A DNA stretch of 64,000 bases from Vampirovibrionales bacterium (GCA_039794365.1 JBDIVN010000006.1:71390-135389), one strand, 5' to 3'; shown: positions 44,912 to 57,435, numbered from the stretch's first letter. The notes: generated from the letters alone by a model not told the origin. A program made the numbers and translations.

Positions 44912-46111
44912 ATGTTCAAGTTCATCAAGACCCGACTGACCCCCGGTGCCCGCGCCCTGAACGTGGCGCCTTTGTTCAGCGTGCCCCTGGACGAGTACAA
45001 GGCCACCGGGGAACGCGACGCCATTCTGGCCTCGTCCGGGATGGGTAAATCCTACCTGACCGGCGTCATCATGGAAGAGACGCTGGAAAGCGGCTGCAGC
45101 ATCTGCGTCATTGACCCGGAAGGGGAACACTTCACCCTGGCGGAACGCTACCCGATGATGATCATCGGCGGTGAACACGGCAACCTGCCCCTGGAAGAGG
45201 CGGCCATCGATCTTTTCATCGACGCCATGCTGAAAACCGGCTTCTCCGCCGTCTTCGATCTCTCGGAGTATCTGGATGACGAGCAGCAGCATCTGTACGG
45301 CGTCATTGCGGACAAGCTGTTCCAGGCCGAACAGAAGTACCGCCGCAAGATTCGCCTCATCGTGGAGGAGGCCCAGATCTACGCCCCCCAGAAAACCATG
45401 GGCGGAGCTGCGTCTTCGCGCAGCAAGACCAAGAAGATGGACCCGCTGCTGGCCAGCCAGAAGATCGCCAAGCGGGGCCGCAAGCGGGCCATTGACAGCC
45501 TGTGGGCCACCCAGCGTCCCGCCAGCATCAGCAAGGATATTCTCAGCCAGTGCAACCGGTTCTGGTTTGGGGGGATCACCTCCGAGCAGGATTACAAGGC
45601 CATTCGGCCCTTTCTTAACGAGGCGGGGATCTCCTTTGCGGAGATCAAGGCTCTGCACCCCGGCGAGTTCTACTTTTACAGCAAGGGGATGACCAAGAAG
45701 ATCAAGATCCGCAAGCGCCACTGCAAACACGCCGGGGCCACGCCGGAGGCGGGCATGAACTTTCACGCCACGGTGAACAGTTCCATGGAGAAAGCCATCG
45801 CCTCGCTGACCGAAGCCGTTGCCCAGCGGGCCGTCGAGAAGCAGAAGGAAGAATCGGAAATCGCCCTGCTCAAGGCCCAGATCCGCGAACTGAAGAAGGA
45901 CAACGAGAACCTGCGCAAGGAACTGGAGCAGGAGCAGCTGGCCACCAAGGTGATTGAGCGGCTGGAGAAATCGCCCACATCCAGCACGTCGTCCTCACGG
46001 CGTCCCCGCAAGCCGGGAGGACAGGACGATGCGGCCCTGCAGGCCAAAATCGCGGAAAAGATCGAGGAATCCAGCCGGCGGCTGCATCCGACGAAAATCA
46101 ATCTCGACTAG
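44912..46111 (+). CDS. HerA/FtsK-like (DUF87) P-loop ATPase with C-terminal coiled coil
   Basis: Walker A SSGMGKSY, Walker B …LIVEEAQ, conserved WATQRP motif; C-terminal heptad-rich KQKEESEIALLKAQIRELKK… and a Ser/Arg tail. Confidence 0.6.
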   Translation: MFKFIKTRLTPGARALNVAPLFSVPLDEYKATGERDAILASSGMGKSYLTGVIMEETLESGCSICVIDPEGEHFTLAERYPMMIIGGEHGNLPLEEAAIDLFIDAMLKTGFSAVFDLSEYLDDEQQHLYGVIADKLFQAEQKYRRKIRLIVEEAQIYAPQKTMGGAASSRSKTKKMDPLLASQKIAKRGRKRAIDSLWATQRPASISKDILSQCNRFWFGGITSEQDYKAIRPFLNEAGISFAEIKALHPGEFYFYSKGMTKKIKIRKRHCKHAGATPEAGMNFHATVNSSMEKAIASLTEAVAQRAVEKQKEESEIALLKAQIRELKKDNENLRKELEQEQLATKVIERLEKSPTSSTSSSRRPRKPGGQDDAALQAKIAEKIEESSRRLHPTKINLD

Positions 46112-46169: not shown

Positions 46170-46439
46170 TTACGCGAAGATGGCGCCTGCCTCGTAGAGA
46201 TCCTGGCGCATCTCCAGGCGCTTCTGGGCGTCCTTGTCGTTCATCTGGTCCGCAATAGACACAATGTCATCCGCGCTCTGACTCTCCGAACGGGCGACAT
46301 CCAACAACTGGGCCATCAGGCCGGTGGCCGAGCCGTCGCTTCCGTAACTCTCCAGGCTTGCATTCGACGTTGATCCGTCGCGGCCCGGCCTCTTCTGCAT
46401 GGCCTGCACCATGCCCAGGGCACCAACACTGCCAAGCAT
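46170..46439 (-). CDS. small-protein family member A (C-terminal …LYEAGAIFA)
   Basis: ATG at 46439 preceded by a GGAGAGAGGAGAGAG purine tract; paralogous to the ORFs at 47014, 47596 and 48255. Confidence 0.5.
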   Translation of the reverse strand: MLGSVGALGMVQAMQKRPGRDGSTSNASLESYGSDGSATGLMAQLLDVARSESQSADDIVSIADQMNDKDAQKRLEMRQDLYEAGAIFA

Positions 46440-46687
46440 AAACGCTCTCTCCTCTCTCCGAACACTTCGTTTTTCGATCACAATCGCACACGGTTGCCGT
46501 ATAAAAATAAAAACGATTTTACGGTGCGGATTGCCCCGCCTCTCTCCAAAAGGCTTTGACGGGCTTTAGATTTTATTTATGCACCAGCGGCAAAAAAAAT
46601 GTTTTTATGCAAGCACAGGGAGCAACACACTCCTACAGAATCGGTATCAGGTACAGGCAGGGGATAACAGGAGGTTTGACAGCAAGT

Positions 46688-46900
46688 ATGGGTTTGGAAA
46701 TCGGACAAAAGATTCAGAATCCGCAGGTTCAGTTTGGCGGCGGTGAAAACGGCCAAGCTGGCGGAGCCAAGCAGGCGGGTGGCGCCGAGGGCGGTCCGAA
46801 GCCGCCGGAAGGCACCGGGTTCCCCGGGCTGGACAATCAGCAGGACGGCAAGAATCCGCAGCAGGCGCAAAAGCTGGAGATGAATTCCATCTTTTCATAG
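46688..46900 (+). CDS. small Gly/Gln-rich protein D (N-terminus resembles the Q/G-rich proteins; C-terminal …LEMNSIFS)
   Basis: AGGAGG 13 nt before the ATG; MGLEIGQKIQNPQVQFGGGENGQAGG… resembles MSLTIGFKPDQQQAQGQQGLGQAGQ of the 23899..25113 product. Confidence 0.4.
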   Translation: MGLEIGQKIQNPQVQFGGGENGQAGGAKQAGGAEGGPKPPEGTGFPGLDNQQDGKNPQQAQKLEMNSIFS

Positions 46901-47013
46901 TTTGAAATAAGGAGGTTAAGGACATCCACCCAGCCGGGTTTCGCCGGGCTGGATGGATGCATTGTCAGGAGATTCAGCAAGAGATAGCAAGAGAAAACAG
47001 TTAAAGCATTTTT

Positions 47014-47403
47014 TCAGGTTCCAAAAACGGCGCCCGCATCGAACAGCCCTTGGGACTGGGCGCGGCGGCGGCGTTTTTGCTCGTCTCGCGCCTGCATGCG
47101 CAGGTATTCGATCTCCTCGATGATCTTGCGTTGCTCGGCCCGGATCGCCAACTGGCGATCCAACTGGTTGACGGCCAGCATCTCGTTAAGGGACATGTCG
47201 GGCCTCACGCTGTTGGCCAGCGCAATGCGCTGATCGCTGTAATAAAAGCTGTCGCCGCTGCCGACGAGTTTGTCCAGGGCGCGTCCGCTCAGGTGCCGGT
47301 AGGCGCCGGGATTTCCAGCGACCTGGGCGGCCACGTCGGAAATGGGCCTGCCCAACGGGCGAAACACCGTATTCAGTGCCAGGGGGACACCGGACAGAGA
47401 CAT
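47014..47403 (-). CDS. small-protein family member B (C-terminal …LFDAGAVFGT)
   Basis: ATG at 47403 with GGAG 12 nt upstream; N-terminus MSLSGVPLAL…; basic Q/R-rich helix before the tail. Confidence 0.5.
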   Translation of the reverse strand: MSLSGVPLALNTVFRPLGRPISDVAAQVAGNPGAYRHLSGRALDKLVGSGDSFYYSDQRIALANSVRPDMSLNEMLAVNQLDRQLAIRAEQRKIIEEIEYLRMQARDEQKRRRRAQSQGLFDAGAVFGT

Positions 47404-47595
47404 TAGACACACACTCCGGGAAATTGCTCTTTCCAAACTGCTCTTCATGTTTATAAAAACATTAGAGCGTTCGAAATTGCCCGCCCGTTACAAAAGAAGC
47501 TTCTTAAAATTTGACCGGAACGCGGGGGGCCGCGCTCCGGTCATTCACTTCCCAACTTCCAAAAACGGATCTTTCCTCACTTTCCTCACTGAAAC

Positions 47596-47961
47596 CTAGT
47601 AGAAGACATGCCCCTGGGCGATGGCGTTCTCCTCGGAGATCCGGTCCTGTTCGCGCATCCGCTTGAAGCGGTCCAGTTGCACCTCCAGTTTCTCAATCTC
47701 GGCCATGATGGCTTTCAGAATATTGTTGAGCACCGCCAGTTGCGGGAAATAGCTGGACCAGTCGGACACCTGCCTTTTCTCCACCCGGCCCGTGAAATGG
47801 ACCGTATCGCGTGACACCATGAGATCGTTGCTGAGGCTGGCCGCCAACGCGGAGCGCTCGGAGAGCGCATTGTTGAATTGCGATTTCGCATCGCTCAGCG
47901 CGGCAATCGTTGCCAGTTCGCCAAAGAGGATTCCAATACTCACGACCTGTATCTCCCACAC
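47596..47961 (-). CDS. small-protein family member E (C-terminal …AIAQGHVFY)
   Basis: Start uncertain (GTG at 47961 or ATG at 47820); the C-terminal RMREQDR…AQGHVFY aligns with member B. Confidence 0.4.
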   Translation of the reverse strand: MWEIQVVSIGILFGELATIAALSDAKSQFNNALSERSALAASLSNDLMVSRDTVHFTGRVEKRQVSDWSSYFPQLAVLNNILKAIMAEIEKLEVQLDRFKRMREQDRISEENAIAQGHVFY

Positions 47962-48254
47962 AATAGACAGACGTACGGATTTGACTTGTTGAAACGTTAC
48001 GGGGGATCTTGTGCGCTACTTTCGCTTTCCTACCGGTTGCATAAAAACCTGCTTTTGATTTTTTGTGACAGCCTGTTTTGGCAGAGAACGGGGCGTTAGG
48101 CTAAAAACCTCTCCCCGAAAGCCTTTCCCATATTAACTTTTTTAATTTTTATAAGTCTTTTATATTTGCTACAGATGTACCAAATCTATCTTCAGGCGCT
48201 AAAAACCCGCTTGTTTTTCAAGGCGGGTCTGGTGGTATAACGAAAAACCTCGGC

Positions 48255-48560
48255 TTATGCAAAAACGGAGAGGCCGGAACTGATGGCCTGCTGGCGGCGA
48301 GCCGTCTCCTGCTTCTGCCGCTTTCGGGCCGCTTCGGCCATCAGCGAGTGGGCCTCGTACATGGAGGCGTTCAGGTTATTTTTCATCTCCAACTGGGTAT
48401 CCGCCTGGGCAATCTGCCCCAGAAAACGCGGATTGTTGTAGTTGGCGGCGGCACGATTCGCCAGCCCCATGCGGGCTTCGTTATTGCTCTGGATGCCGAA
48501 CGCGGCGTTGTTGGCGCCGTTAATGCCGCTCAGCCCTGAAAACAGCGTAATTGGTGACAT
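48255..48560 (-). CDS. small-protein family member C (C-terminal …ISSGLSVFA)
   Basis: ATG at 48560 with GAAGG upstream; N-terminus MSPITLFSGLSGINGANNAAFG; Asn/Ala-rich. Confidence 0.5.
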   Translation of the reverse strand: MSPITLFSGLSGINGANNAAFGIQSNNEARMGLANRAAANYNNPRFLGQIAQADTQLEMKNNLNASMYEAHSLMAEAARKRQKQETARRQQAISSGLSVFA

Positions 48561-48862
48561 AACAACCCACAGCCTTCTTTCATCTACTCGACGTCTTTAA
48601 GCATTAAACCCGTTTTTCCGATTTTGTTGCCACCTCAAAATGATTCATTTTGTATATACAGACAGCCACCAGCAAGAAATCCGCACGCTACAACTCATAC
48701 CCTGAGAGTGTTCCCAAGATCATAAAAGTTATTCGCTATGGTTTTTCAGAAACATATGCCATAGTGGTTAAAACAACCTCTCAGACTGAAGCGACCCGAT
48801 CCGCCGCCTCAGCGAGGCCATACACACCCACTCCCTGTTTCCAATTCAGGAGTTGTTTTGTC

Positions 48863-50338
48863 ATGACCAATTCTCCAAACCCATACCCCATTAGGCCGGA
48901 AATCGATCCACGGGCTGAATCCGCCTTACCGGTGATTCTGGAAGGAAGCGTCCGCAAACACGAAACCCTTCCGCCAGAAGGACGAAACCGGACGGGCGGA
49001 CTGCTGCAAGCCCTGCTCATGGAGGCCGCCAACATCAAGCAGGCGATCCGTCAGCAGAATGACCACCTGGGTGACGACCCGGATGCGTTCAAGACGTCCG
49101 GCCTGATCCAAATCCCCCGGTTTGAACCCCTGCCCGATGCCGCAGAACTCAACGCCGAACTGGATCGCCGTCAGCCGAACAGAAACACCGGGATGAAGGC
49201 GATTCACAATGCCGTCATCCAGAACGAAATCGAAAAGGAAAAAGCCCGCCGTCAGGCCATCCAGATGGAGGCCGTCGATCAACAGATGGCCCGCCTGGCC
49301 CGCGCCATCGTGGAAACGGCTGAAGCGCAGAAGATGCAGCAGGCCCGCAGCTTCCACCGCCAGCAGGCCACAGCCTTTGATACAATACCGGGAATCATCC
49401 CCGGCTCCCTGGCCCGCCACGGCATCGGCCAGACGAACATACGCCCTTTGATTGCCGAAAGCCTGCCGATTGTTCACGCCATCCCCGGCGCCCAAAAACC
49501 AATCAGCCGCGCCGACTACCTCCGCCAGCAAAACGCCCTCGCCATGGAACGCGCCCAACGCGATGCCCTGTACGCCCAGCAGCGCTATTATGAGGAACAG
49601 ACCCGCCAAGAGCGCGTCCGACGGAATGTGGAATACCAGCAGCGTTTGAGAACCGGAAATCAACAGCAGGCCTTGGCTCAGCCGGTAAAAGTTTTCCCCC
49701 AGGCTCAATCCTCCTCCCCAGTGCCTGGAAGTTATGCTGAGGCTCTTAAAACCCTTGATGCTCTAACTGATAAAATAGATCAGGTAATCGAGAGCCTTCT
49801 TGAAGCAATACCGTTGCCTCCTCAGCAGGCTTATCAAATGGTTCAGGCTGGTCATCTTAGTCAGGTACGAACAAAGCGCGTCTCCCTATGGTATAACTGG
49901 GGCGATATACTAAAGGCTCCCCACGTTACTGCGGGTAATGCAAAGACCATTCCCCTTTCAGCTTACGAAAACGCCGTGGATCTGGCGGAGGCTTTGGACA
50001 GAGTCTGCAATAATCTGGGTTCCAAGGCTCCTATTAATAACTGGATCCGTCCAGGTAATCGCCGCTACCACGGCCAGGGTCTGGCAGTGGATTTTGAAGG
50101 AACGAAGGCCTGGAAAGACGGTCCACTTTATACAGCATTGAGACGAACTCCCGAGATCAAACGTATAGGACAACCTGATAATAACTATCCAGGAATGCAT
50201 GCGGATATTGGCCCTAATGGATGGGTTCCTGGGCGGCAGTTTCTTTTCATTGATAACGGATACTATAAACCTGGACGTGACTATACCGTTCCGGTTTTTA
50301 CTGGGCCACAATCGGCTCGTTTAAGGCCAGGAACGTAA
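48863..50338 (+). CDS. polymorphic-toxin-like protein: coiled-coil N-terminal region plus low-GC C-terminal M15/LAS-type zinc peptidase domain
   Basis: CAGGAG 11 nt before the ATG at 48863. C-terminal …RYHGQGLAVDF…GMHADIGP matches the H..G.AVD / H.D signature of M15 D-Ala-D-Ala carboxypeptidase-like peptidases. GC drops from about 62% to about 47% at about 49.71 kb. Confidence 0.55.
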   Translation: MTNSPNPYPIRPEIDPRAESALPVILEGSVRKHETLPPEGRNRTGGLLQALLMEAANIKQAIRQQNDHLGDDPDAFKTSGLIQIPRFEPLPDAAELNAELDRRQPNRNTGMKAIHNAVIQNEIEKEKARRQAIQMEAVDQQMARLARAIVETAEAQKMQQARSFHRQQATAFDTIPGIIPGSLARHGIGQTNIRPLIAESLPIVHAIPGAQKPISRADYLRQQNALAMERAQRDALYAQQRYYEEQTRQERVRRNVEYQQRLRTGNQQQALAQPVKVFPQAQSSSPVPGSYAEALKTLDALTDKIDQVIESLLEAIPLPPQQAYQMVQAGHLSQVRTKRVSLWYNWGDILKAPHVTAGNAKTIPLSAYENAVDLAEALDRVCNNLGSKAPINNWIRPGNRRYHGQGLAVDFEGTKAWKDGPLYTALRRTPEIKRIGQPDNNYPGMHADIGPNGWVPGRQFLFIDNGYYKPGRDYTVPVFTGPQSARLRPGT

Positions 50339-50340
50339 AT

Positions 50341-50673
50341 CTAGTCATTAGCAATATAGCTCTGAACAATACTACTAACCTCATTTTTACAGAAGTCAGA
50401 ATGGAGGGAAATTTCACCATTGGCATCAAAGCATCTGTCAGAAACAGCTTTCGCTCTTTTACTCCACTGCATGTCTTGTCCGGAATTAACACCACACTTT
50501 TCAAGCGCTTTTCTCATATCAAAGAGTGAATCCGCTTGTTTTTGAATAGTTTCCTGTTGTTCAATACGGTCTCTATGTAACCGTTCAACTTCATTTCTAC
50601 CCGTCCAAATGGTAACTATCATGCCTACTAGAAGCGCAGCAATCATAATATTTTTGATCACTTGGAACCTCAT
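50341..50673 (-). CDS. low-GC small membrane-anchored Cys-containing protein (candidate immunity protein)
   Basis: 110 aa with an N-terminal TM segment (IMIAALLVGMIVTIW) and 3 Cys; about 40% GC; stop lies 3 nt from the toxin stop, convergent. Confidence 0.45.
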   Translation of the reverse strand: MRFQVIKNIMIAALLVGMIVTIWTGRNEVERLHRDRIEQQETIQKQADSLFDMRKALEKCGVNSGQDMQWSKRAKAVSDRCFDANGEISLHSDFCKNEVSSIVQSYIAND

Positions 50674-50746
50674 ACCCGCCGAGTAACAACTCTATTTACC
50701 CATTCTACTAAGTAATTAGCACCATACAAGGCATAAATATTCGGCT

Positions 50747-51628
50747 TTGCTCAATATGATCACCACTGATGAGCACCGGGAACTGACCGTGGGCCTCAAG
50801 GCGGAAGTCGCCAAAAACTGGCTGCTGAACGATGGCCGCTCACTCGAAGATGGCCGTTGGGAGTACCGGGGTCAGGCGATGGATAACATCGAAGACGCCC
50901 AGTTGCTTGCCTATGCCGACGTAAAGAACGTCGAAGACACTGGCCGTCATCTGACCTCGGCCCAGTTGCAGAAAGCAGCGCTGGATATCGCTATGGGCGC
51001 TTATAAACTCTGGATCGGCGACGATATCAACACCCTGCTCGATCCTGAAGCTAATCTGCTGGAGAAAACCTGGTCCGGCATCTCCCTGGCCTCCAACTTC
51101 ATCCCCGGCGCTGCCATAGGTAAGCTGGGGCTGAAGACAATCACGGCCTTTAGAAGACTCAGAGGCATCACCAAGGCCAGTGGCAAGATTCCGGCGAATA
51201 TAGCCCGAAGTCCTCGAGCCCTTCGGCAGCTTCAGCAGAAAATGAAGCTGACCGACGCTCAAATTGCCGCTTTCAAAAAAGATCCCACAAAATTCAGAAA
51301 CGGACGATTTGAGCACATCGAAGTCTACAAGGGACCGAAAGACACTGCAATTTTTCGGACTAAGATAAAATCCAATATTGCAGATGGCTCTCATACGGTT
51401 AGAGAGTACCTAGTAGATAAAAATGGAAAGCTCTTGTTTCAAGCGCATAAAACTCAACTGAGAAACGGCTCTTTTCGTCATTGGCGAATCGATCAAGAAG
51501 GACCTTTTTCGGAACTTTTTCAAAAAGCAGCTAGGCGTGGCCAAAAGGTAAAGCCACAAATTGATGGACCCTTCGAAGATGAATATTACAATACTTGGCA
51601 ACAAATATTAGACAAGGTAGGAGAATAA
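50747..51628 (+). CDS. orphan polymorphic-toxin C-terminal module (conserved pretoxin segment plus low-GC toxin tip)
   Basis: 293 aa. The first about 150 codons are at genome-like GC and the last about 140 at about 42% GC. No secretion domain; followed by a translationally coupled small gene. Confidence 0.45.
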   Translation: MLNMITTDEHRELTVGLKAEVAKNWLLNDGRSLEDGRWEYRGQAMDNIEDAQLLAYADVKNVEDTGRHLTSAQLQKAALDIAMGAYKLWIGDDINTLLDPEANLLEKTWSGISLASNFIPGAAIGKLGLKTITAFRRLRGITKASGKIPANIARSPRALRQLQQKMKLTDAQIAAFKKDPTKFRNGRFEHIEVYKGPKDTAIFRTKIKSNIADGSHTVREYLVDKNGKLLFQAHKTQLRNGSFRHWRIDQEGPFSELFQKAARRGQKVKPQIDGPFEDEYYNTWQQILDKVGE

Positions 51629-51629
51629 T

Positions 51630-52025
51630 ATGGAAACGGAAAAAGAGATTCTGGATTCATTGGTTGCTTTTAACCGGCCCTTAGAGGAATTGGTGCCTTT
51701 AGTATGGCCGCTTAAGTTTCGGTATTCCGCTCCCATTACCCACATTACCCGGCAGGATATTATTTCAGTGATGAATCGTTATCTGGCCGGAGAATTTGAC
51801 GGAGATACGCTGGAATTTTGGGCCGATCTCGTCTTTGATCGCCTCTTTTATGATGTACCGACCAGTGGCCCCCTCGAAATGGAAACAAACTATACAGATG
51901 CCATTGACAATGTGTTGGAAATTCTGACATATGAGCCTGAGCGGGGGCATCCACACACGCCGGAGTTTATCCGTCAGCTTATTGACGAACTGGAAAACGC
52001 CAAGCTTGACCCTGTGGAGGCTTGA
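51630..52025 (+). CDS. candidate immunity protein (acidic, 131 aa)
   Basis: ATG lies 1 nt after the stop of 50747..51628 (TAATATG); acidic with no TM; paralog at 52276..52692. Confidence 0.45.
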   Translation: METEKEILDSLVAFNRPLEELVPLVWPLKFRYSAPITHITRQDIISVMNRYLAGEFDGDTLEFWADLVFDRLFYDVPTSGPLEMETNYTDAIDNVLEILTYEPERGHPHTPEFIRQLIDELENAKLDPVEA

Positions 52026-52074
52026 TTCAATCTGCACATTTAAAAACCGAATAGAATAGGCAAGTATCAAGAGA

Positions 52075-52108
52075 GCGGCTGATGGAACCTTCCATCAGCC
52101 TTTTTTTA
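52075..52108 (+). terminator. rho-independent terminator
   Basis: GGCTGATGGA-ACCT-TCCATCAGCC stem-loop followed by T7. Confidence 0.7.
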
Positions 52109-52275
52109 GGTCCACCCATTCCTATGAGATTTTTGTTCCCCTTGTACAGGATATTTTGGTAAAATAGACAAAGAACCTTTCGAGGTTTTCTGATTAGGGA
52201 GAAGATTTAACGTTCAGTGGGTGAATACGGGATTATATTGGAGAATGCGAAGTCTCTAAGTGTAATCTCGAGAAT

Positions 52276-52692
52276 ATGGCGTGGTTAGAAAGGAGCCCGG
52301 TGGTGATCGCTGAAGACAAAATAAAGCCGGTGGTTCAGGCCTTTGTGAAACAGGGAGGGTATCCCTCTCCCGAGGATCGCAAAAATGTCTGGCAGTTTCA
52401 TGAGCGGAACTGTCCTGAACATGCCTTTGTCATCGCGACTCGAGCCGATGTGATTCGGGAAGCAGACCGGTTTCTGAATCAGGAAATCACCGGTGCAGAC
52501 CTGGCGGCATGGGCTGATGGCATTATTTTCCTGGCCGGTGGCGGCCTGGTTGAATATGACCCGGATTACCGGGACGAGATTGTCAACGCCCTGGAAGAAT
52601 TGGCAAGTGAAGAAGAAAACCTGACGCTTGAAGTCATAACGCGAGTCAAGAAGTCTTCCATAGAGAACGGTGAGATGAATTTCAGTTTTTAA
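52276..52692 (+). CDS. orphan immunity-like protein, paralog of 51630..52025
   Basis: Shared block YLAGEFDGDTLEFWADLVF vs FLNQEITGADLAAWADGIIF; its 3' flank and terminator are a diverged copy of 52035-52108. Confidence 0.45.
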   Translation: MAWLERSPVVIAEDKIKPVVQAFVKQGGYPSPEDRKNVWQFHERNCPEHAFVIATRADVIREADRFLNQEITGADLAAWADGIIFLAGGGLVEYDPDYRDEIVNALEELASEEENLTLEVITRVKKSSIENGEMNFSF

Positions 52693-52726
52693 AAACCGGA
52701 TAGAGCAGGTAAGTACCCAGGAGAGC

Positions 52727-52756
52727 AGCTGATGGAAATTCCATCAGCTTTTTTAC
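52727..52756 (+). terminator. rho-independent terminator (duplicate of 52075-52108)
   Basis: AGCTGATGGA-AAT-TCCATCAGCT followed by T6. Confidence 0.65.
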
Positions 52757-52757
52757 G

Positions 52758-53540
52758 TTATTCAAATTCGTCGAAGTCATCCGGCTCCTGGGGGATTTCG
52801 TCGGGGAGGGCGTCCATGACTTCCAGGGCCATCTTGGCGGCGGCCTGCTGGGCCTCCTTCTTGGAGGCGCCCTTGCCGTAACCCATCACCTCGTCATTGA
52901 TCAGCACCTCGATATAAAACGTCTTCTTGTGGGCGGGGCCGCTTTCGCGGGCCGTGCGATAAACGGGCAGGCCGTCGCCTTCGGCCTGGGTCAGCTCCTG
53001 CAGCACCGCCTTGAAGTTGTCCTTCGTGGGGCTTAAGTCCACCTGGGTCACTTCGTCTTCGAGTACTCGCAGGAGCATCTCGCGGGCCGCCGCCATCTTG
53101 CCGTCGAGAAACAGGGCGCCCAGCAGGGACTCGAATCCGCAGGCCAGGTTGGAGGTTTTCTTGCGTCCCCCGCTTCTCGCCTCGCTGACGCCAAAAATCA
53201 TGTATTCCCCCAGGTTCAGCTGCTGGGCGAATTTGGCAAGGGTGGCATCGCTGACGATGACCGCGCGAATCTTGGTGAGTTCGCCCTCGCGGTAATCGGG
53301 AAAGCGTTCAAAAATATACTCGCTGACGATGAGCTTGAGCACCGCGTCACCGAGAAACTCCAGGCGCTCGTAGTTTTCAAGGTGCGAAAGCTTGTTCTCG
53401 TAAGTATAGGAACTGTGGGTCAGCGCCCGGTCATAGATTTCGTAGATGCTTTCATGGGACGGCAGATCGATGCCCAGACTGTCGAGCAGTTCGTCAATCT
53501 GGCGCATGCGTGATTCGTCAATGCCGTAAGGATAGGTCAT
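52758..53540 (-). CDS. rnc: ribonuclease III
   Basis: RNase III signature (ERLEFLGDAVL) plus the C-terminal dsRBD. Confidence 0.9.
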   Translation of the reverse strand: MTYPYGIDESRMRQIDELLDSLGIDLPSHESIYEIYDRALTHSSYTYENKLSHLENYERLEFLGDAVLKLIVSEYIFERFPDYREGELTKIRAVIVSDATLAKFAQQLNLGEYMIFGVSEARSGGRKKTSNLACGFESLLGALFLDGKMAAAREMLLRVLEDEVTQVDLSPTKDNFKAVLQELTQAEGDGLPVYRTARESGPAHKKTFYIEVLINDEVMGYGKGASKKEAQQAAAKMALEVMDALPDEIPQEPDDFDEFE

Positions 53541-53594
53541 CGCGAGCGTCCCATATTCCCAAGGCCCTTAAAATCTTAAAATATGGACCGCTTT

Positions 53595-54461
53595 TCAGGG
53601 AAACAGGGGAAGGAGATCTTTGACCAGCCCCTGCTGAAGAACGACCCAATGAATATAATAATACGAGATTGCGCCGCAGAAAAGATAACTGTCCAGACGG
53701 TCCAGCAGCCCGCCGTGCCCCTGGAAGAGTCCGCCGGAATCCTTCACCCCGGCATCCCGCTTGATGAGGGATTCGGCCAGGTCGCCCAGCTGAGAGACCA
53801 CCACCAACAGGACACTGAGGAGCAAGGCATGGAGCCAGTTGAAATACGCCAGGAAGGCAAAGCCGGTGCCGGCGATAATGCCCACAACCAGCCCGCCGAT
53901 GGCTCCCTCTGTGGTTTTCTTGGGGCTGATTTCCGGGTAGAGCGGGTGTCTGCCCATCAGTTTGCCCACGTAATACGCCCCCACATCGGACATACTGATG
54001 ACGAGCACCGTGAAAAAGACGTAGTAGGCACCCTCGGCAGAAACGTTGCGCAGCAGAATAAAGTGCATGGGCAGGAAGGCCACGTAAAAGATGGCCAGAA
54101 ACGTGGCGCCAATGTCGTTGATCGTGGCACGGGGTTTGCGAAACAGCAGCCGGATGAAGCTGCCGATAATCCCCAGGGTGATCATGGGCAGGAAGTACTG
54201 GGTCTTGTCGAAGTGGGCCAGGAGGATCAGCGCAATGCCGGTGGTCAGGACGATCAGCTGGGAAGGCCGGATATCCTTGGCCTTCATGATGGAGGTCAGC
54301 TCCCGGAACCCCTGGTAGAGGGTAAACAGAACCGCGCCGGTCCAGACCCAGCCGCCGGTAAAGATCAGGGTCGCCATCACGCAACCCAGCAGGATTCCCA
54401 TCCCCACCCGGCGGCCTTTGCGCGGAGCAGCGGGAGGCGTCGCCAGTTGTTCTTCTGTCAT
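53595..54461 (-). CDS. cdsA: phosphatidate cytidylyltransferase
   Basis: 288-aa multipass membrane protein with the C-terminal CTP-transferase signature (…GHGG..DR.DS…). Confidence 0.85.
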   Translation of the reverse strand: MTEEQLATPPAAPRKGRRVGMGILLGCVMATLIFTGGWVWTGAVLFTLYQGFRELTSIMKAKDIRPSQLIVLTTGIALILLAHFDKTQYFLPMITLGIIGSFIRLLFRKPRATINDIGATFLAIFYVAFLPMHFILLRNVSAEGAYYVFFTVLVISMSDVGAYYVGKLMGRHPLYPEISPKKTTEGAIGGLVVGIIAGTGFAFLAYFNWLHALLLSVLLVVVSQLGDLAESLIKRDAGVKDSGGLFQGHGGLLDRLDSYLFCGAISYYYIHWVVLQQGLVKDLLPLFP

Positions 54462-54486
54462 AAGGGCCTCCGCGCGATCGGATGGA

Positions 54487-55050
54487 TCAGATTTCCATCA
54501 CTTCCTTTTCTTTTTCCGCCACCAGCCGGTCCAGTTCCGCCGTATAGCGATCCGTCAGCTTCTGGATCTGCTCCTGCCGGGACTTGAACTCGTCTTCGGG
54601 CAGGTTCTCTTCCTTCTGAGCCTTGTCCAGCTCGTTGCTGGCATCGCGGCGGATGTTGCGGATGGCAATCTTGCCGTCCTCGCCCATCTTCTTCACCAGC
54701 TTGGACATTTCCTTGCGCCGTTCTTCCGTCAGCGGCGGCACGTTAAGGCGGATGACGGACCCGTCATTGTTTGGGGGCAGGCCGAGTTCGGATTTGGCGA
54801 TGGCCTTCTCGATCTCACCGAGCATGGACTTGTCGTAGGGCTGGATCACGATGGTCGTCCCGCCCTGGACGGAGACGTTGGACATCTGCCGCACCGGCGT
54901 GGGCGTGCCGTAGTAGTCCACCTGGACCCGGTCCAGCATCAGGGGGTTGGCCCGTCCGGTGCGCACCGTTCCCATCTCATTCTGGGTGGCGGCCACCGCC
55001 TTTTTCATTTTTTCCTCTGCCGTCGCATGTATCTCGTCAACGCTGACCAT
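54487..55050 (-). CDS. frr: ribosome recycling factor
   Basis: 187-aa RRF consensus (…RTGRANP..LD.V.VDYYG..TP…). Confidence 0.9.
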   Translation of the reverse strand: MVSVDEIHATAEEKMKKAVAATQNEMGTVRTGRANPLMLDRVQVDYYGTPTPVRQMSNVSVQGGTTIVIQPYDKSMLGEIEKAIAKSELGLPPNNDGSVIRLNVPPLTEERRKEMSKLVKKMGEDGKIAIRNIRRDASNELDKAQKEENLPEDEFKSRQEQIQKLTDRYTAELDRLVAEKEKEVMEI

Positions 55051-55220
55051 CGTGCTGTTTCCCTGTCTCTCCGATATAAAGTACCCGACATCTTAATCAA
55101 GATCCCCTGCCGGTTCAAGCGTTTCGACTTGTTAATGTAAACCCAGGGTTTACTTGCCGGGGGCGGCCCGGTTTCCTATGATGGAAGGCAGTCGCATCCG
55201 AGATAGAGAGAGTCAGAGAC

Positions 55221-55895
55221 ATGCAGCAATCACTGTTCGGCAGTGTCGTACTCAGCGGAGAGGACGAGGCCGCCCCAAAACTTTCCCCGCTGGCTTCGGC
55301 GATTGAAGACGCCGTTTTTACGGTCATCGACCTGGAAACCACCGGCCTCAACGCCCGAAAGAATGCCATCACGGAGATCGTGGCCATCCAGTACAAAAAC
55401 GGCGAGGAAATGGGCAAATACGCAACGCTGGTAAAACCCACCGAGCCGATTCCCCCTGAGGTCGAGGCCATTACCGGCATCAGCAACGACATGGTCGCCC
55501 AGGCCCCGGCCCTGGTCATGGCGCTCAGCGAACTCTGCGGTTTTGTCGGCACAAGCCCCCTGATCGTCGGACACAATGTAGCCTTCGATCTCAACTTTCT
55601 GCGGGAAAAGCTGGATACCAGCGGTCTTTCACCTTTTATCACCCGGTTTGATCCGGCGACGGCTTTTTGTACTAAAATATTGGCGCAGAAGGTCCTACCC
55701 GGCCTTCCCAGTTACGAGGGGATCGTCGTCGCCAACCAGTGCGGTGTCATCAATGACAACCCCCACCGGGCGGAGTACGACGTGCGCATGAGCGCCGGCA
55801 TATTATTCTCACTCATCCGGCGCCTCAGGGAGCGGCAACACCCGATCCAATCCGTTGAGGATCTGCTTTGCTATCAGGGGGCTATCTTGCTGTAA
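55221..55895 (+). CDS. DnaQ-like (DEDDh) 3'-5' exonuclease
   Basis: Exo I DLETTG, Exo II GHNVAFD, Exo III H..EYD motifs. Confidence 0.8.
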   Translation: MQQSLFGSVVLSGEDEAAPKLSPLASAIEDAVFTVIDLETTGLNARKNAITEIVAIQYKNGEEMGKYATLVKPTEPIPPEVEAITGISNDMVAQAPALVMALSELCGFVGTSPLIVGHNVAFDLNFLREKLDTSGLSPFITRFDPATAFCTKILAQKVLPGLPSYEGIVVANQCGVINDNPHRAEYDVRMSAGILFSLIRRLRERQHPIQSVEDLLCYQGAILL

Positions 55896-56047
55896 ACACA
55901 TCCACCGTGCCGTCGGCACGGCGACTGCCCCTGAAACAACCTGCCTTCGGCAAGCCCATCGATCTCAGACCTCCAGTAAATACACCTCAAAAGCCCGTTT
56001 CGCTGTTTCAGCGGCTCCGGGCTTTATTTTTTACGGGCATCCAGCGC

Positions 56048-56689
56048 ATGGAACACTGGCTGCCCCTCTCCATGACAACGTTTACGGTGATCGACCTGGA
56101 AACCACCGGCACCGACCCGGCCATGAACGAGATCATTGAAATCGGCGCCGTCAAGTTCCGCAATGGCCGGGAAACCGGGCGGTTTGAAACCCTGGTTCAG
56201 CCGGTTTCCGGCGGAATCCCCGCCAAAACCACGGAGATCACCGGCATCACCAATGCCATGCTCAAAGACGCGCCCGGTCCCATCGCCGCCCTGCATGAGC
56301 TGGCTGACTTCGTCGGGGAGCATCCCCTGCTGGTTGCCCACTCGGCGGACTTTGACCTGGGAACAATCCACCGGCAACTGGACCGCCTGGGACTGGATCA
56401 CCTCAAGGACCGTTTCGATCCGGGGCGGACCGTCTGCACCCTGCGCCTGGCGGAAGACCTGGTGCCGGAAGTCATTGAAAACATCCGCCAAGTACAAAAG
56501 GATCGCCCCGATTACCTGACCCTCGACGGCCTGCGCGACCACTACGGGCTGACTGAAGACACCCGCCACCGGGCCGACAGCGACGCCCGGCTCACGGCCC
56601 GGCTGCTTTACCGGCTGCTGAAAGAGAACCCCAGGCTGAAGACCCTGAGGGATCTTCAGAATTTCAGTTCCAGCGAAATGGGGCAGTGA
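56048..56689 (+). CDS. DnaQ-like (DEDDh) 3'-5' exonuclease, tandem paralog
   Basis: DLETTG…HSADFD…H.ADSD motifs; ATG at 56048. Confidence 0.75.
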   Translation: MEHWLPLSMTTFTVIDLETTGTDPAMNEIIEIGAVKFRNGRETGRFETLVQPVSGGIPAKTTEITGITNAMLKDAPGPIAALHELADFVGEHPLLVAHSADFDLGTIHRQLDRLGLDHLKDRFDPGRTVCTLRLAEDLVPEVIENIRQVQKDRPDYLTLDGLRDHYGLTEDTRHRADSDARLTARLLYRLLKENPRLKTLRDLQNFSSSEMGQ

Positions 56690-57435
56690 TCGGACCCCAT
56701 CACGTCCGGGTGGATGGCGGCGTTGACCAGGTTGCCCTTCAGGTTCGGCGTGACGAAGAAGTAGTCGATCCGCCACCCAACGTTTCTTTCGCGGGCGAAA
56801 GACCGCTGGTTCCACCATGAATACTGCTCCGGTTCCTGGCAGAATTCCCGGAAGGTATCGATATAGCCGCAGCCGACGAACTTGTCCACCCAAGCTCTTT
56901 CCACGGGCAGAAAGCCGCTGGTTTTCTCGTTGGCCTTGGGCCGGGCGAGGTCGATTTCCTTGTGGGCGGTGTTGAGATCCCCGCACATCACCAGGGCCTT
57001 GCCCTGGGCCTTCAATTCGTTCACCTGGTCCAGAAAGGCATCATAGAACGCCAGCTTGTACTGGAGCCGCTCATCACCGCGCTGGCCGTTGGGCCAATAG
57101 ATGTTGTAGAGGATGAACTCCGGGTACTCGGCGATAATGACCCGTCCCTCGCGGTCAAAGCGTTCGATGCCCAACCCTTCACGGATGCTGAGAGGCTCTT
57201 CCTTCGTAAAAAGCGCCACGCCGCTGTAGCCCCGCTTTTCGGCATGGCTCCAGTAGGTATGATAACCCTGGATGGACGCCATCTCCAGCGTCAACTGGTC
57301 GCCGCTGATTTTGGTTTCCTGGAGGCCCAGAATATCGGGCTGCGTGGCGTTGAACCAGTCCCAGAACCCTTTTTTGATGACGGCGCGAATGCCGTTGACA
57401 TTCCACGAATAAAGCCGCAGGTGCTTGTTGGCCAT
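56656..57435 (-). CDS. xth: exodeoxyribonuclease III (AP endonuclease)
   Basis: EEP family motifs (…SWNVNG.R…; …SDHCP). Confidence 0.88.
   Translation of the reverse strand: MANKHLRLYSWNVNGIRAVIKKGFWDWFNATQPDILGLQETKISGDQLTLEMASIQGYHTYWSHAEKRGYSGVALFTKEEPLSIREGLGIERFDREGRVIIAEYPEFILYNIYWPNGQRGDERLQYKLAFYDAFLDQVNELKAQGKALVMCGDLNTAHKEIDLARPKANEKTSGFLPVERAWVDKFVGCGYIDTFREFCQEPEQYSWWNQRSFARERNVGWRIDYFFVTPNLKGNLVNAAIHPDVMGSDHCPISLELKF

Follow-up and report, generated by a model that had tools for sequence, protein, structure and literature searches.

A probable orphan module of a polymorphic toxin with two genes of an immunity family in a Vampirovibrionales bacterium

Polymorphic toxins are a major means of bacterial competition. 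In the orphan CdiA-CT and Rhs-CT modules, a pre-toxin fragment is joined to a variable toxin tip and followed by a linked immunity gene, and these units are situated downstream of the cdi or rhs main genes. Orphan C-terminal (CT) cassettes of MafB are located within genomic islands. Selection of orphan Rhs modules has been reported (PMC3967940), MafB/MafI polymorphic toxins are described for Neisseria (PMC4287609), and phage-borne polymorphic toxins exist as well, i.e., MuF (PMC5576092) and Bxa, which is accompanied by two immunity proteins (PMC11699363). Here, we analyse a stretch of 64,000 nucleotides from a Vampirovibrionales bacterium (GCA_039794365.1, JBDIVN010000006.1:71390-135389), called the window throughout, in which an open reading frame (ORF) of 293 codons is followed by two genes for small acidic proteins. 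The locus seems to be an orphan unit of a polymorphic toxin system that includes two genes of an immunity family, an assignment that is well supported, and with a probability of about 72% the 293-aa ORF is the displaced C-terminal part of a longer toxin gene. This architecture is well known and the locus is an ordinary example of it, although built from uncharacterised toxin, immunity, and carrier families. Its central features are (aa, amino acids; pI, isoelectric point):

50747-51628, + strand: orphan ORF, 293 aa, TTG start
50747-51136, + strand: conserved half of the orphan ORF (codons 1-130), a helical domain and then a PT-TG-like block
51137-51628, + strand: toxin tip (codons 131-293), basic, pI about 10
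51630-52025, + strand: first small gene, cognate immunity candidate, 131 aa, pI 4.3
52276-52692, + strand: second small gene, immunity-family paralogue, 138 aa, pI 4.5

Like orphan CdiA-CT and Rhs-CT modules, the window contains a pre-toxin fragment with a tip and a tightly linked candidate immunity gene, displaced downstream of a main gene, and it shares with them a sharp homology break at the junction between pre-toxin and tip as well as arrays with extra immunity genes. In contrast to those modules, its carrier is neither CdiA nor Rhs, and there is no VENN or PxxxxDPxGL demarcation. Furthermore, the main gene of the window no longer holds the pre-toxin block, and the small gene of the cassette that would have been inserted is encoded on the opposite strand.

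An in-frame stop at 50717 lies ahead of the orphan ORF, which in the NCBI annotation begins with the ATG at 50756 and comprises 290 aa. The ORF at 52276-52692 is annotated there with 129 aa, and the start of this shorter form is probably the GTG at 52303, which is located behind AAGGAG. An earlier note on this DNA, made from the sequence alone, had described a TAATATG coupling of the 293-aa ORF to the acidic 131-aa ORF and had found no secretion or trafficking domain in the former, and both descriptions hold. The TAA at 51626-51628 is separated by only one base from the ATG at 51630, and a GGAG is situated 6 nt 5' of this ATG. Searches of Pfam, NCBIfam, PADLOC, and PHROG gave no domain in any of the three ORFs (293, 131, and 138 aa), and the 293-aa ORF does not itself display the trafficking or secretion domain of a polymorphic toxin.

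Word-indexed homology searches recovered only the window's own proteins, and a profile search added P0009 and P0008. The productive homology search was an exhaustive one with phmmer, which identified 28 relatives of the 293-aa protein that fall into two groups. In the first group, residues 5-247 of the query align to the C-terminal part of proteins of 380-722 aa encoded in Vampirovibrio and cyanobacterial assemblies, among them P0003 (617 aa), P0004 (608 aa), P0005, P0007, P0009 (533 aa), P0010, and P0012 (722 aa). The N-terminal 250-360 residues of these carriers are rich in Q and have no counterpart among the Pfam and PHROG families. The orphan ORF starts at the position equivalent to residue 344 of P0003, and it is because about 340 N-terminal residues of its relatives are absent that we define the 293-aa ORF as an orphan. 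As in MafB/MafI, a family-specific N-terminal carrier with a poorly understood export is combined with variable C-terminal toxins, downstream immunity genes, and orphan cassettes in islands. Unlike MafB, the window family shows no DUF1020 or other Pfam match and no sequence relationship to the Neisseria proteins, and its carriers seem to lack a signal-peptide-like N-terminal hydrophobic stretch, as judged by eye.

In the second group, only residues 80-140, approximately, align, and they correspond to the block IGDDINTL.DP.A....K..AG.SLASNFIPGA. This block directly follows the RHS core in P0014, P0024 (1798 aa), and P0025 (2126 aa), it is encountered upstream of PT-HINT and AHH nuclease domains (P0014 and P0015) or of an LHH nuclease (P0026), and it occurs downstream of an LXG domain in locus L010, while other carriers of the block continue into many unrelated tails. 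As it links carriers of the RHS or LXG type to toxin tips of diverse kinds, the block behaves as a pre-toxin junction, and one conserved region is joined to different C-terminal tips (AHH, LHH, PT-HINT, and the tail of locus L001). Two Bacillales loci illustrate how such a junction is used. In L010 from Metabacillus niabensis, an LXG toxin with its immunity gene precedes an orphan of 246 aa in which the pre-toxin segment recurs ahead of a new tip, and L008 contains RHS-derived orphan/immunity pairs employing the IGDD block. The window resembles the LXG (type VII) locus L010 in having the same IGDD...TL.D junction and a downstream orphan, but the window family is devoid of an LXG domain. Vampirovibrio and the cyanobacteria, to which the relatives of the window proteins belong, are outer-membrane lineages for which one would not expect the LXG/type VII route.

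Within the conserved half of the orphan protein, a helical N-terminal domain (residues 5-85, approximately) precedes the PT-TG-like block at about residues 86-130, WIGDDINTLLDPEANLLEKTWSGISLASNFIPGAAIGKLGLK. In the AF2 model of the orphan protein, pLDDT values exceed 90 for residues 20-80 and are low for residues 86-140; PT-TG (PF14449) has been reported to model with low confidence too (PMC13483458). In other respects as well, the block recalls PT-TG, being a short linker with low confidence or disorder and with conserved Gly and Asp residues, placed between LXG or RHS trafficking domains and diverse toxins. However, only 2 of 17 block sequences gave a match to PF14449, below threshold and with E=0.0034 at best, the window's own block gave none, and among the full-length proteins there was none at E<=0.01-0.1, so that no sequence reached the gathering threshold. 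We therefore call the block PT-TG-like; it would be at most a divergent relative of PT-TG and not a member of that family.

The boundary between the conserved half and the tip becomes visible in a comparison with L001, a contig of 3.8 kb that was obtained in the sequencing run which also yielded the window's strain and that is syntenic with the window. It encodes, in this order, a 486-aa homologue of the 562-aa ORF located upstream of the orphan in the window (74% amino acid and 78% nucleotide identity), a small gene on the minus strand (112 aa, with a hydrophobic N-terminus), and the pre-toxin fragment P0008. Within the 293-aa ORF, similarity to the L001 DNA (79%) is confined to 50835-51136, where the two blocks are 82% identical at the amino acid level, and it stops abruptly after ...PGAAIGKLGLK at codon 130, beyond which L001 continues with an unrelated tail of 40 residues. 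This abrupt divergence places a homology junction at the end of the pre-toxin block. The same reads (SRR28812184) provide, besides L001 as a 78%-identical version of the toxin locus, the Logan contig L015, which corresponds to window positions 51522-56995 with 99.98% identity and breaks inside the toxin tip. L001 might be a paralogous locus of the same genome or might belong to a related organism in the same sample. An exact match of 28 nt (L001 1376-1403, window 48718-48745) is located upstream of the 486- and 562-aa genes in otherwise dissimilar surroundings, and might reflect a regulatory site that is conserved or else a boundary at which a shared unit of about 2.4 kb recombined.

A step in base composition had been noted earlier as well, between a GC-rich front and a GC-poor rear part of the orphan ORF. 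The step is real on measurement: codons 1-130 have a GC content of 56.7% and a GC content at third codon positions (GC3) of 0.71, codons 131-170 have 54% GC, and codons 171-293 have 40% GC with a GC3 of 0.33. The maximum-likelihood change point, though, lies at nt 51271-51272, i.e., at codon 175, which places it some 45 codons beyond the homology junction (codon 130) and thus inside the tip, so that the step does not mark the junction between pre-toxin and tip.

The tip is not unique to the window, as residues from about 150 to 293 align with a conserved family present in at least seven relatives. Its predicted fold consists of two helices, a five-stranded antiparallel β-meander, and a C-terminal helix (model pLDDT 79, pTM 0.75), and it has neither a fold match in PDB or BFVD nor a sequence match in PDB. 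A tryptophan that is invariant in all seven tip relatives is replaced by arginine in the window, where the motifs of the family are intact in other respects. Basic with a pI of about 10, the tip contrasts with the small proteins encoded downstream, all seven of which proved acidic when measured (pI 4.3-4.8).

The two small proteins of the window had been proposed to be paralogues, and their alignment bears this out (BLASTP E=5e-6, 34% identity over 56 aa). Seven members of the family, to which two more can be added by matches in further loci, were aligned and share invariant T, R, E, W, Y, L, L, E, and N positions, and a bit-score matrix indicates that the 138-aa protein is the most divergent of them. 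The small downstream gene travels with the tip, since homologues of 128-148 aa are encoded after P0009, P0003, P0012, P0004, and an orphan tip in L013. In L002, the tip of P0009 is followed by small genes coding for 128 and 131 aa, in L003 and L004 the tip of P0003 by a single one of 131 aa, and in L005 that of P0012 by two of 132 aa each. In L013, P0004 is followed by a 131-aa gene, then by a 178-aa orphan, and then by a 148-aa partner; this orphan begins within the pre-toxin block, and its tip is 60% identical to the C-terminal part of P0003. The product of the first small gene of L002 matches the 131-aa protein of the window with E=3e-15 (BLASTP). The immunity arrangement suggested earlier is thereby strengthened, as one or more homologous small acidic genes follow the tip in every tip-sharing relative examined. 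The tip is presumed to be toxic inside a target cell, and the acidic 131-aa protein, translated from a ribosome-binding site that overlaps the toxin end, would be the cognate immunity protein and presumably neutralises the tip by binding to it.

No toxin tip is adjacent to the second small gene, and a search of the spacer at 52026-52275 for the remnant of one found none. By analogy with the layout of L013, the most plausible view of the 138-aa paralogue is that of an orphan immunity gene whose tip was lost, or otherwise of an extra, protective one. A σ70-like site is situated at 51565-51592 (+), within the toxin 3' end and 5' of the first small gene (TGGACC, a 16-nt spacer, and TACAAT), and a possible extended -10 element, TGGTAAAAT, at 52157-52165 (+) lies in the spacer before the second small gene; such sites could allow expression of the immunity genes independently of the toxin. 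Tandem pairs are encountered with a different tip as well. In L012, the short-form relative P0016 is followed by two paralogous Cys-rich proteins with CxxC motifs (1039-1404 and 1553-1921), both ending in ...NPIQQMLKIDPIFY or a close variant, and they are candidates for a different immunity family.

The region upstream of the orphan ORF gives clues to its origin and contains two further genes:

48863-50338, + strand: upstream long ORF, 562 aa from a TTG at 48650 or about 491 aa from the ATG at 48863
50341-50673, - strand: gene for a small hydrophobic protein, 110 aa, GC3 0.34

When P0004 was compared with the whole window by tblastn, exactly two matches were obtained, which are collinear and on the same strand. 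Residues 155-278 of P0004 correspond to 49292-49681, inside the 562-aa ORF (E=5.9e-5), and residues 347-574 correspond to 50759-51484 in the 293-aa ORF. As P0004 is thus represented by two collinear pieces around a low-GC insert, the orphan was probably displaced by an incoming cassette. The middle of the 562-aa ORF is carrier-like, with a match to P0004 at E=6e-6 by BLASTP and a probability of 70% (E=3.9e-5, 54 columns) by hhalign, and from near nt 49729 onwards it is followed by a different C-terminal domain of low GC content. A GC change point at 49729 (0.60 to 0.48), some 50 nt beyond where the carrier match ends, and the one at 51271 bracket the low-GC inserts. Between the two matches lie 1.05 kb with the GC-poor C-terminal domain of the long ORF and, on the minus strand, the 110-aa gene. 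The product of the latter has a hydrophobic N-terminal segment that would be transmembrane, and it is a candidate immunity or accessory protein which may have arrived together with the new C-terminal domain. A minus-strand gene occupies the corresponding position in L001 (112 aa), in L006 (183 aa, lipoprotein-like), and in L014 (116 aa, highly hydrophobic). The C-terminal domain of the 562-aa ORF displays an H-x-x-G-x-A-x-D ... H-x-D pattern; its reading as an M15/LAS peptidase was not relied on, given a weak match (E=0.003) to the M15_3 peptidase of L002 and none in Pfam.

Similar splits are found in other genomes, and L006 displays a clearer signature than the window. In L006, from a Coleofasciculaceae metagenome-assembled genome (MAG), the long ORF tracks P0004 up to ...RMQQQVLAEGQ and then diverges, the lipoprotein-like gene on the minus strand comes next, and the fragment P0006 resumes at ...KSRQDQLIEQAF, i.e., at the P0004-equivalent position directly after the point at which the long ORF diverged. 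L014 has the same three-part layout of long ORF, minus-strand gene, and orphan. We infer that an ancestral gene resembling P0003, P0004, P0012, or P0009, encoding 530-720 aa with a Q-rich carrier, pre-toxin, and tip, received a low-GC cassette of about 1.05 kb (49682-50758). This cassette would have brought the new C-terminal domain and the reverse-oriented gene for the small hydrophobic protein, and its insertion would have created the present 562-aa ORF, the probable current main gene, and pushed the old unit of pre-toxin, tip, and immunity gene downstream.

The assignment as an orphan toxin, already made in the earlier note, is thus supported by the pre-toxin block shared with RHS and LXG proteins, the missing residues, numbering about 340, the junction against L001, and the small genes linked to the tip. 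A fragment of the conserved region without its 5' part lies downstream of a gene that seems to be of the same family, the link to that main gene being moderate. Several points weigh against this assignment. The relationship of the 562-aa ORF to the carrier family is modest and rests in a Q-rich region, and no full-length gene sharing the pre-toxin block is present in the 64-kb window. No obvious ribosome-binding site or promoter is recognisable before the orphan ORF, whether it starts at 50747 or at 50756, and the L001 counterpart is truncated and has frameshifts upstream of its tail, so that such fragments do decay. These last two observations, together with the arginine in place of the family-wide tryptophan and with the σ70-like site, which could drive the immunity gene alone, would fit a decaying remnant in which the toxin ORF persists silently as a fossil while the immunity genes alone are kept, as a protection against the toxins of neighbours. 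This is possible but doubtful, as a frame of 293 codons that runs through a segment of 40% GC would be unlikely to last long without selection, and as the frame, the coupling of stop and start, and the tip motifs are otherwise intact. Moreover, decay concerns only the present activity and is compatible with an origin as an orphan module.

It seems far less probable that the 293-aa protein is complete and never exported, forming with the 131-aa protein as antitoxin a stand-alone intracellular toxin-antitoxin pair that acts in addiction or abortive infection. Its intact 293 codons with their own start codon, the tight coupling to a small acidic gene, and the position within a low-GC island would be in agreement with such a pair, and P0016 (272 aa) begins at the same boundary. 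However, residues 1-130 have their homologues inside much longer proteins and in the RHS/LXG pre-toxin linker, the truncated start is accounted for by the mapping of P0004 onto a split gene, and neither PADLOC nor Pfam gave a toxin-antitoxin match, that is, nothing pointing to a known defence system or a type II pair. An equally slim chance is given to a phage virion protein, of a structural, ejection, or tail-fibre-like family, whose tips are swapped together with a downstream chaperone or assembly gene, the window then representing a prophage remnant. What speaks for it is above all L002 from a Vampirovibrio MAG, where P0009 is embedded within an SU10-type structural module in the order portal, major capsid, adaptor, 504-aa tail or virion protein, P0009, two small genes, a tail-fibre-motif protein, and an endolysin-like gene of the M15 type. 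In addition, integrases are close by in L005 and L013, and a HerA-type ATPase with a terminase-like PHROG match as well as a weak spanin-like match occur near the window locus, the latter consisting only of weak Rz-like matches of the 110-aa protein (E=1e-4). Against these stand the presence of the block in bona fide RHS and LXG toxins with nuclease tips, and the combination of a basic tip with an acidic partner that is typical of toxin/immunity pairs. The carriers, the tip, and the small proteins match no PHROG family, and there is no match in 50,697 phage records, IMG/VR contigs, or BFVD folds. L003, L005, and L013 are located outside structural modules. Two metagenome scans and tblastn against plasmids did not reveal relatives either, and the window family shows no MuF domain.

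As phage-borne polymorphic toxins are known (PMC5576092, PMC11699363), a phage setting would complement the orphan-module assignment more than compete with it. L002 resembles MuF and Bxa in that P0009 lies among phage structural genes, has two immunity-like genes behind it, and belongs to a family with variable toxins on a conserved N-terminal domain. In contrast to MuF and Bxa, there is no homology, and most family members, including that of the window, lie outside recognisable phage structural modules; the phage-borne setting is seen in the context of L002 alone, and the window has just the HerA/terminase-like ATPase nearby. Furthermore, the two small proteins are paralogous here, whereas the Bxa immunity proteins act by mechanistically distinct routes (PMC11699363). 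A bolder proposal, to which we attach little credence although somewhat more than to a plain virion protein, is that the carrier family (P0003, P0004, P0009, P0012, and the 562-aa ORF) might be an unrecognised phage-derived vehicle, i.e., SU10-like podophage virion or ejection proteins or their domesticated remnants, with swappable PT-TG-like pre-toxin/toxin cassettes in Vampirovibrionia and cyanobacteria. The tip would then be a new toxin fold, the 131- and 138-aa proteins would be a new immunity family, and the window would be a domesticated remnant exchanging cassettes between the pre-toxin segment and the 68-nt flank that is found behind each small gene.

The two copies of this flank are:

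52039-52105, + strand: 3' flank copy 1, a conserved leader of about 38 nt, a GC-rich hairpin of 10 bp, and a T7 run (intrinsic terminator)
52688-52754, + strand: 3' flank copy 2, which begins at the second small gene's stop codon and abuts the convergent rnc

They are 84% identical over 68 nt (self-BLAST E=2e-14), and each contains the 10-bp hairpin and then a T-run, in agreement with the roughly 80% identity and the common terminator that had been claimed before. The copy 1 hairpin has a minimum free energy of -21.2 kcal/mol (z=-3.7), and its outermost stem pair shows a compensatory change from G:C to A:T in copy 2, which argues that the hairpin is under selection. Only these two copies exist in the 64-kb window, where none would be expected by chance. 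From the flanks and the paralogues, the earlier note had concluded that an immunity cassette was duplicated as a segment. While both flanks and paralogues are real, a simple duplication does not fit, since neutral flanks should diverge at least as much as coding sequence. In the window, however, the small genes have no detectable DNA similarity, only the 68-nt flank is repeated, and no continuous unit with comparable divergence of coding and flanking parts exists. With flanks that are 84% identical and proteins that, as old paralogues, share 34% over 56 aa, no single date of duplication suits both. A real tandem duplication is present in L005, where a unit of 604 nt, consisting of the last 24 toxin codons, the small gene, and the terminator, is repeated with 85% identity. 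The window would be better explained if the copies had recombined or been converted at a conserved boundary of cassettes, or if the terminator were under selection. The terminator flank would then mark the 3' boundary of cassettes, and the resemblance of its copies would be maintained both through such exchange and through selection acting on the hairpin. An integron attC site was considered and rejected, as no RYYYAAC/GTTRRRY boundary motifs were seen by eye and the element has a short terminal stem and a T-run. A dispersed repeat was set aside as well for the 64 kb, with only two copies, and for the fetched loci, with none, while at the scale of the whole genome the flank may still be one.

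Polymorphic toxins are little described in Vampirovibrionia (Melainabacteria) and poorly explored in cyanobacteria, and a full-text literature search pairing "Vampirovibrio" with "polymorphic toxin" returned only an off-subject match. The locus and its relatives define a carrier family without a recognisable secretion domain, a divergent PT-TG-like junction that is common to RHS and LXG toxins of Bacillales, a tip without a solved structural relative, and a new candidate immunity family. They also present a repeated splitting of genes by cassettes that carry a reverse-oriented membrane gene, which might aid the annotation of such islands. If toxicity and neutralisation prove true, tip and immunity protein would constitute a new toxin/antitoxin reagent pair, and the export route, possibly linked to phages, would become testable.

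The locus lies in a low-GC island at 46425-52780 (GC 0.47-0.52, against 0.58-0.60 on either side), which may be the remnant of a mobile element. At its edge, a HerA/DUF87-type ATPase is encoded at 44912-46111 (+), with matches in Pfam (E=4.5e-13), PADLOC (HerA, E=2e-19), and PHROG (terminase large subunit, E=1e-15). On the minus strand, four small ORFs (46170-46481, 47014-47448, 47596-47961, and 48255-48560; 101-144 aa) form units of their own with low-GC spacers between them. They have no convincing match in Pfam or PHROG, align weakly with each other, and all end in G-x-(I/V)-F-(A/GT/Y); a Q-rich protein of 258 aa from the prophage-like cluster of L002 (10480-11256) has a similar ending, ...GTGFFL. 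Further downstream, two adjacent and slightly overlapping ORFs at 55221-55895 and 55868-56689 (+), each of the RNase_T/DEDD exonuclease type (Pfam, L015), are tandem paralogues located downstream of frr.

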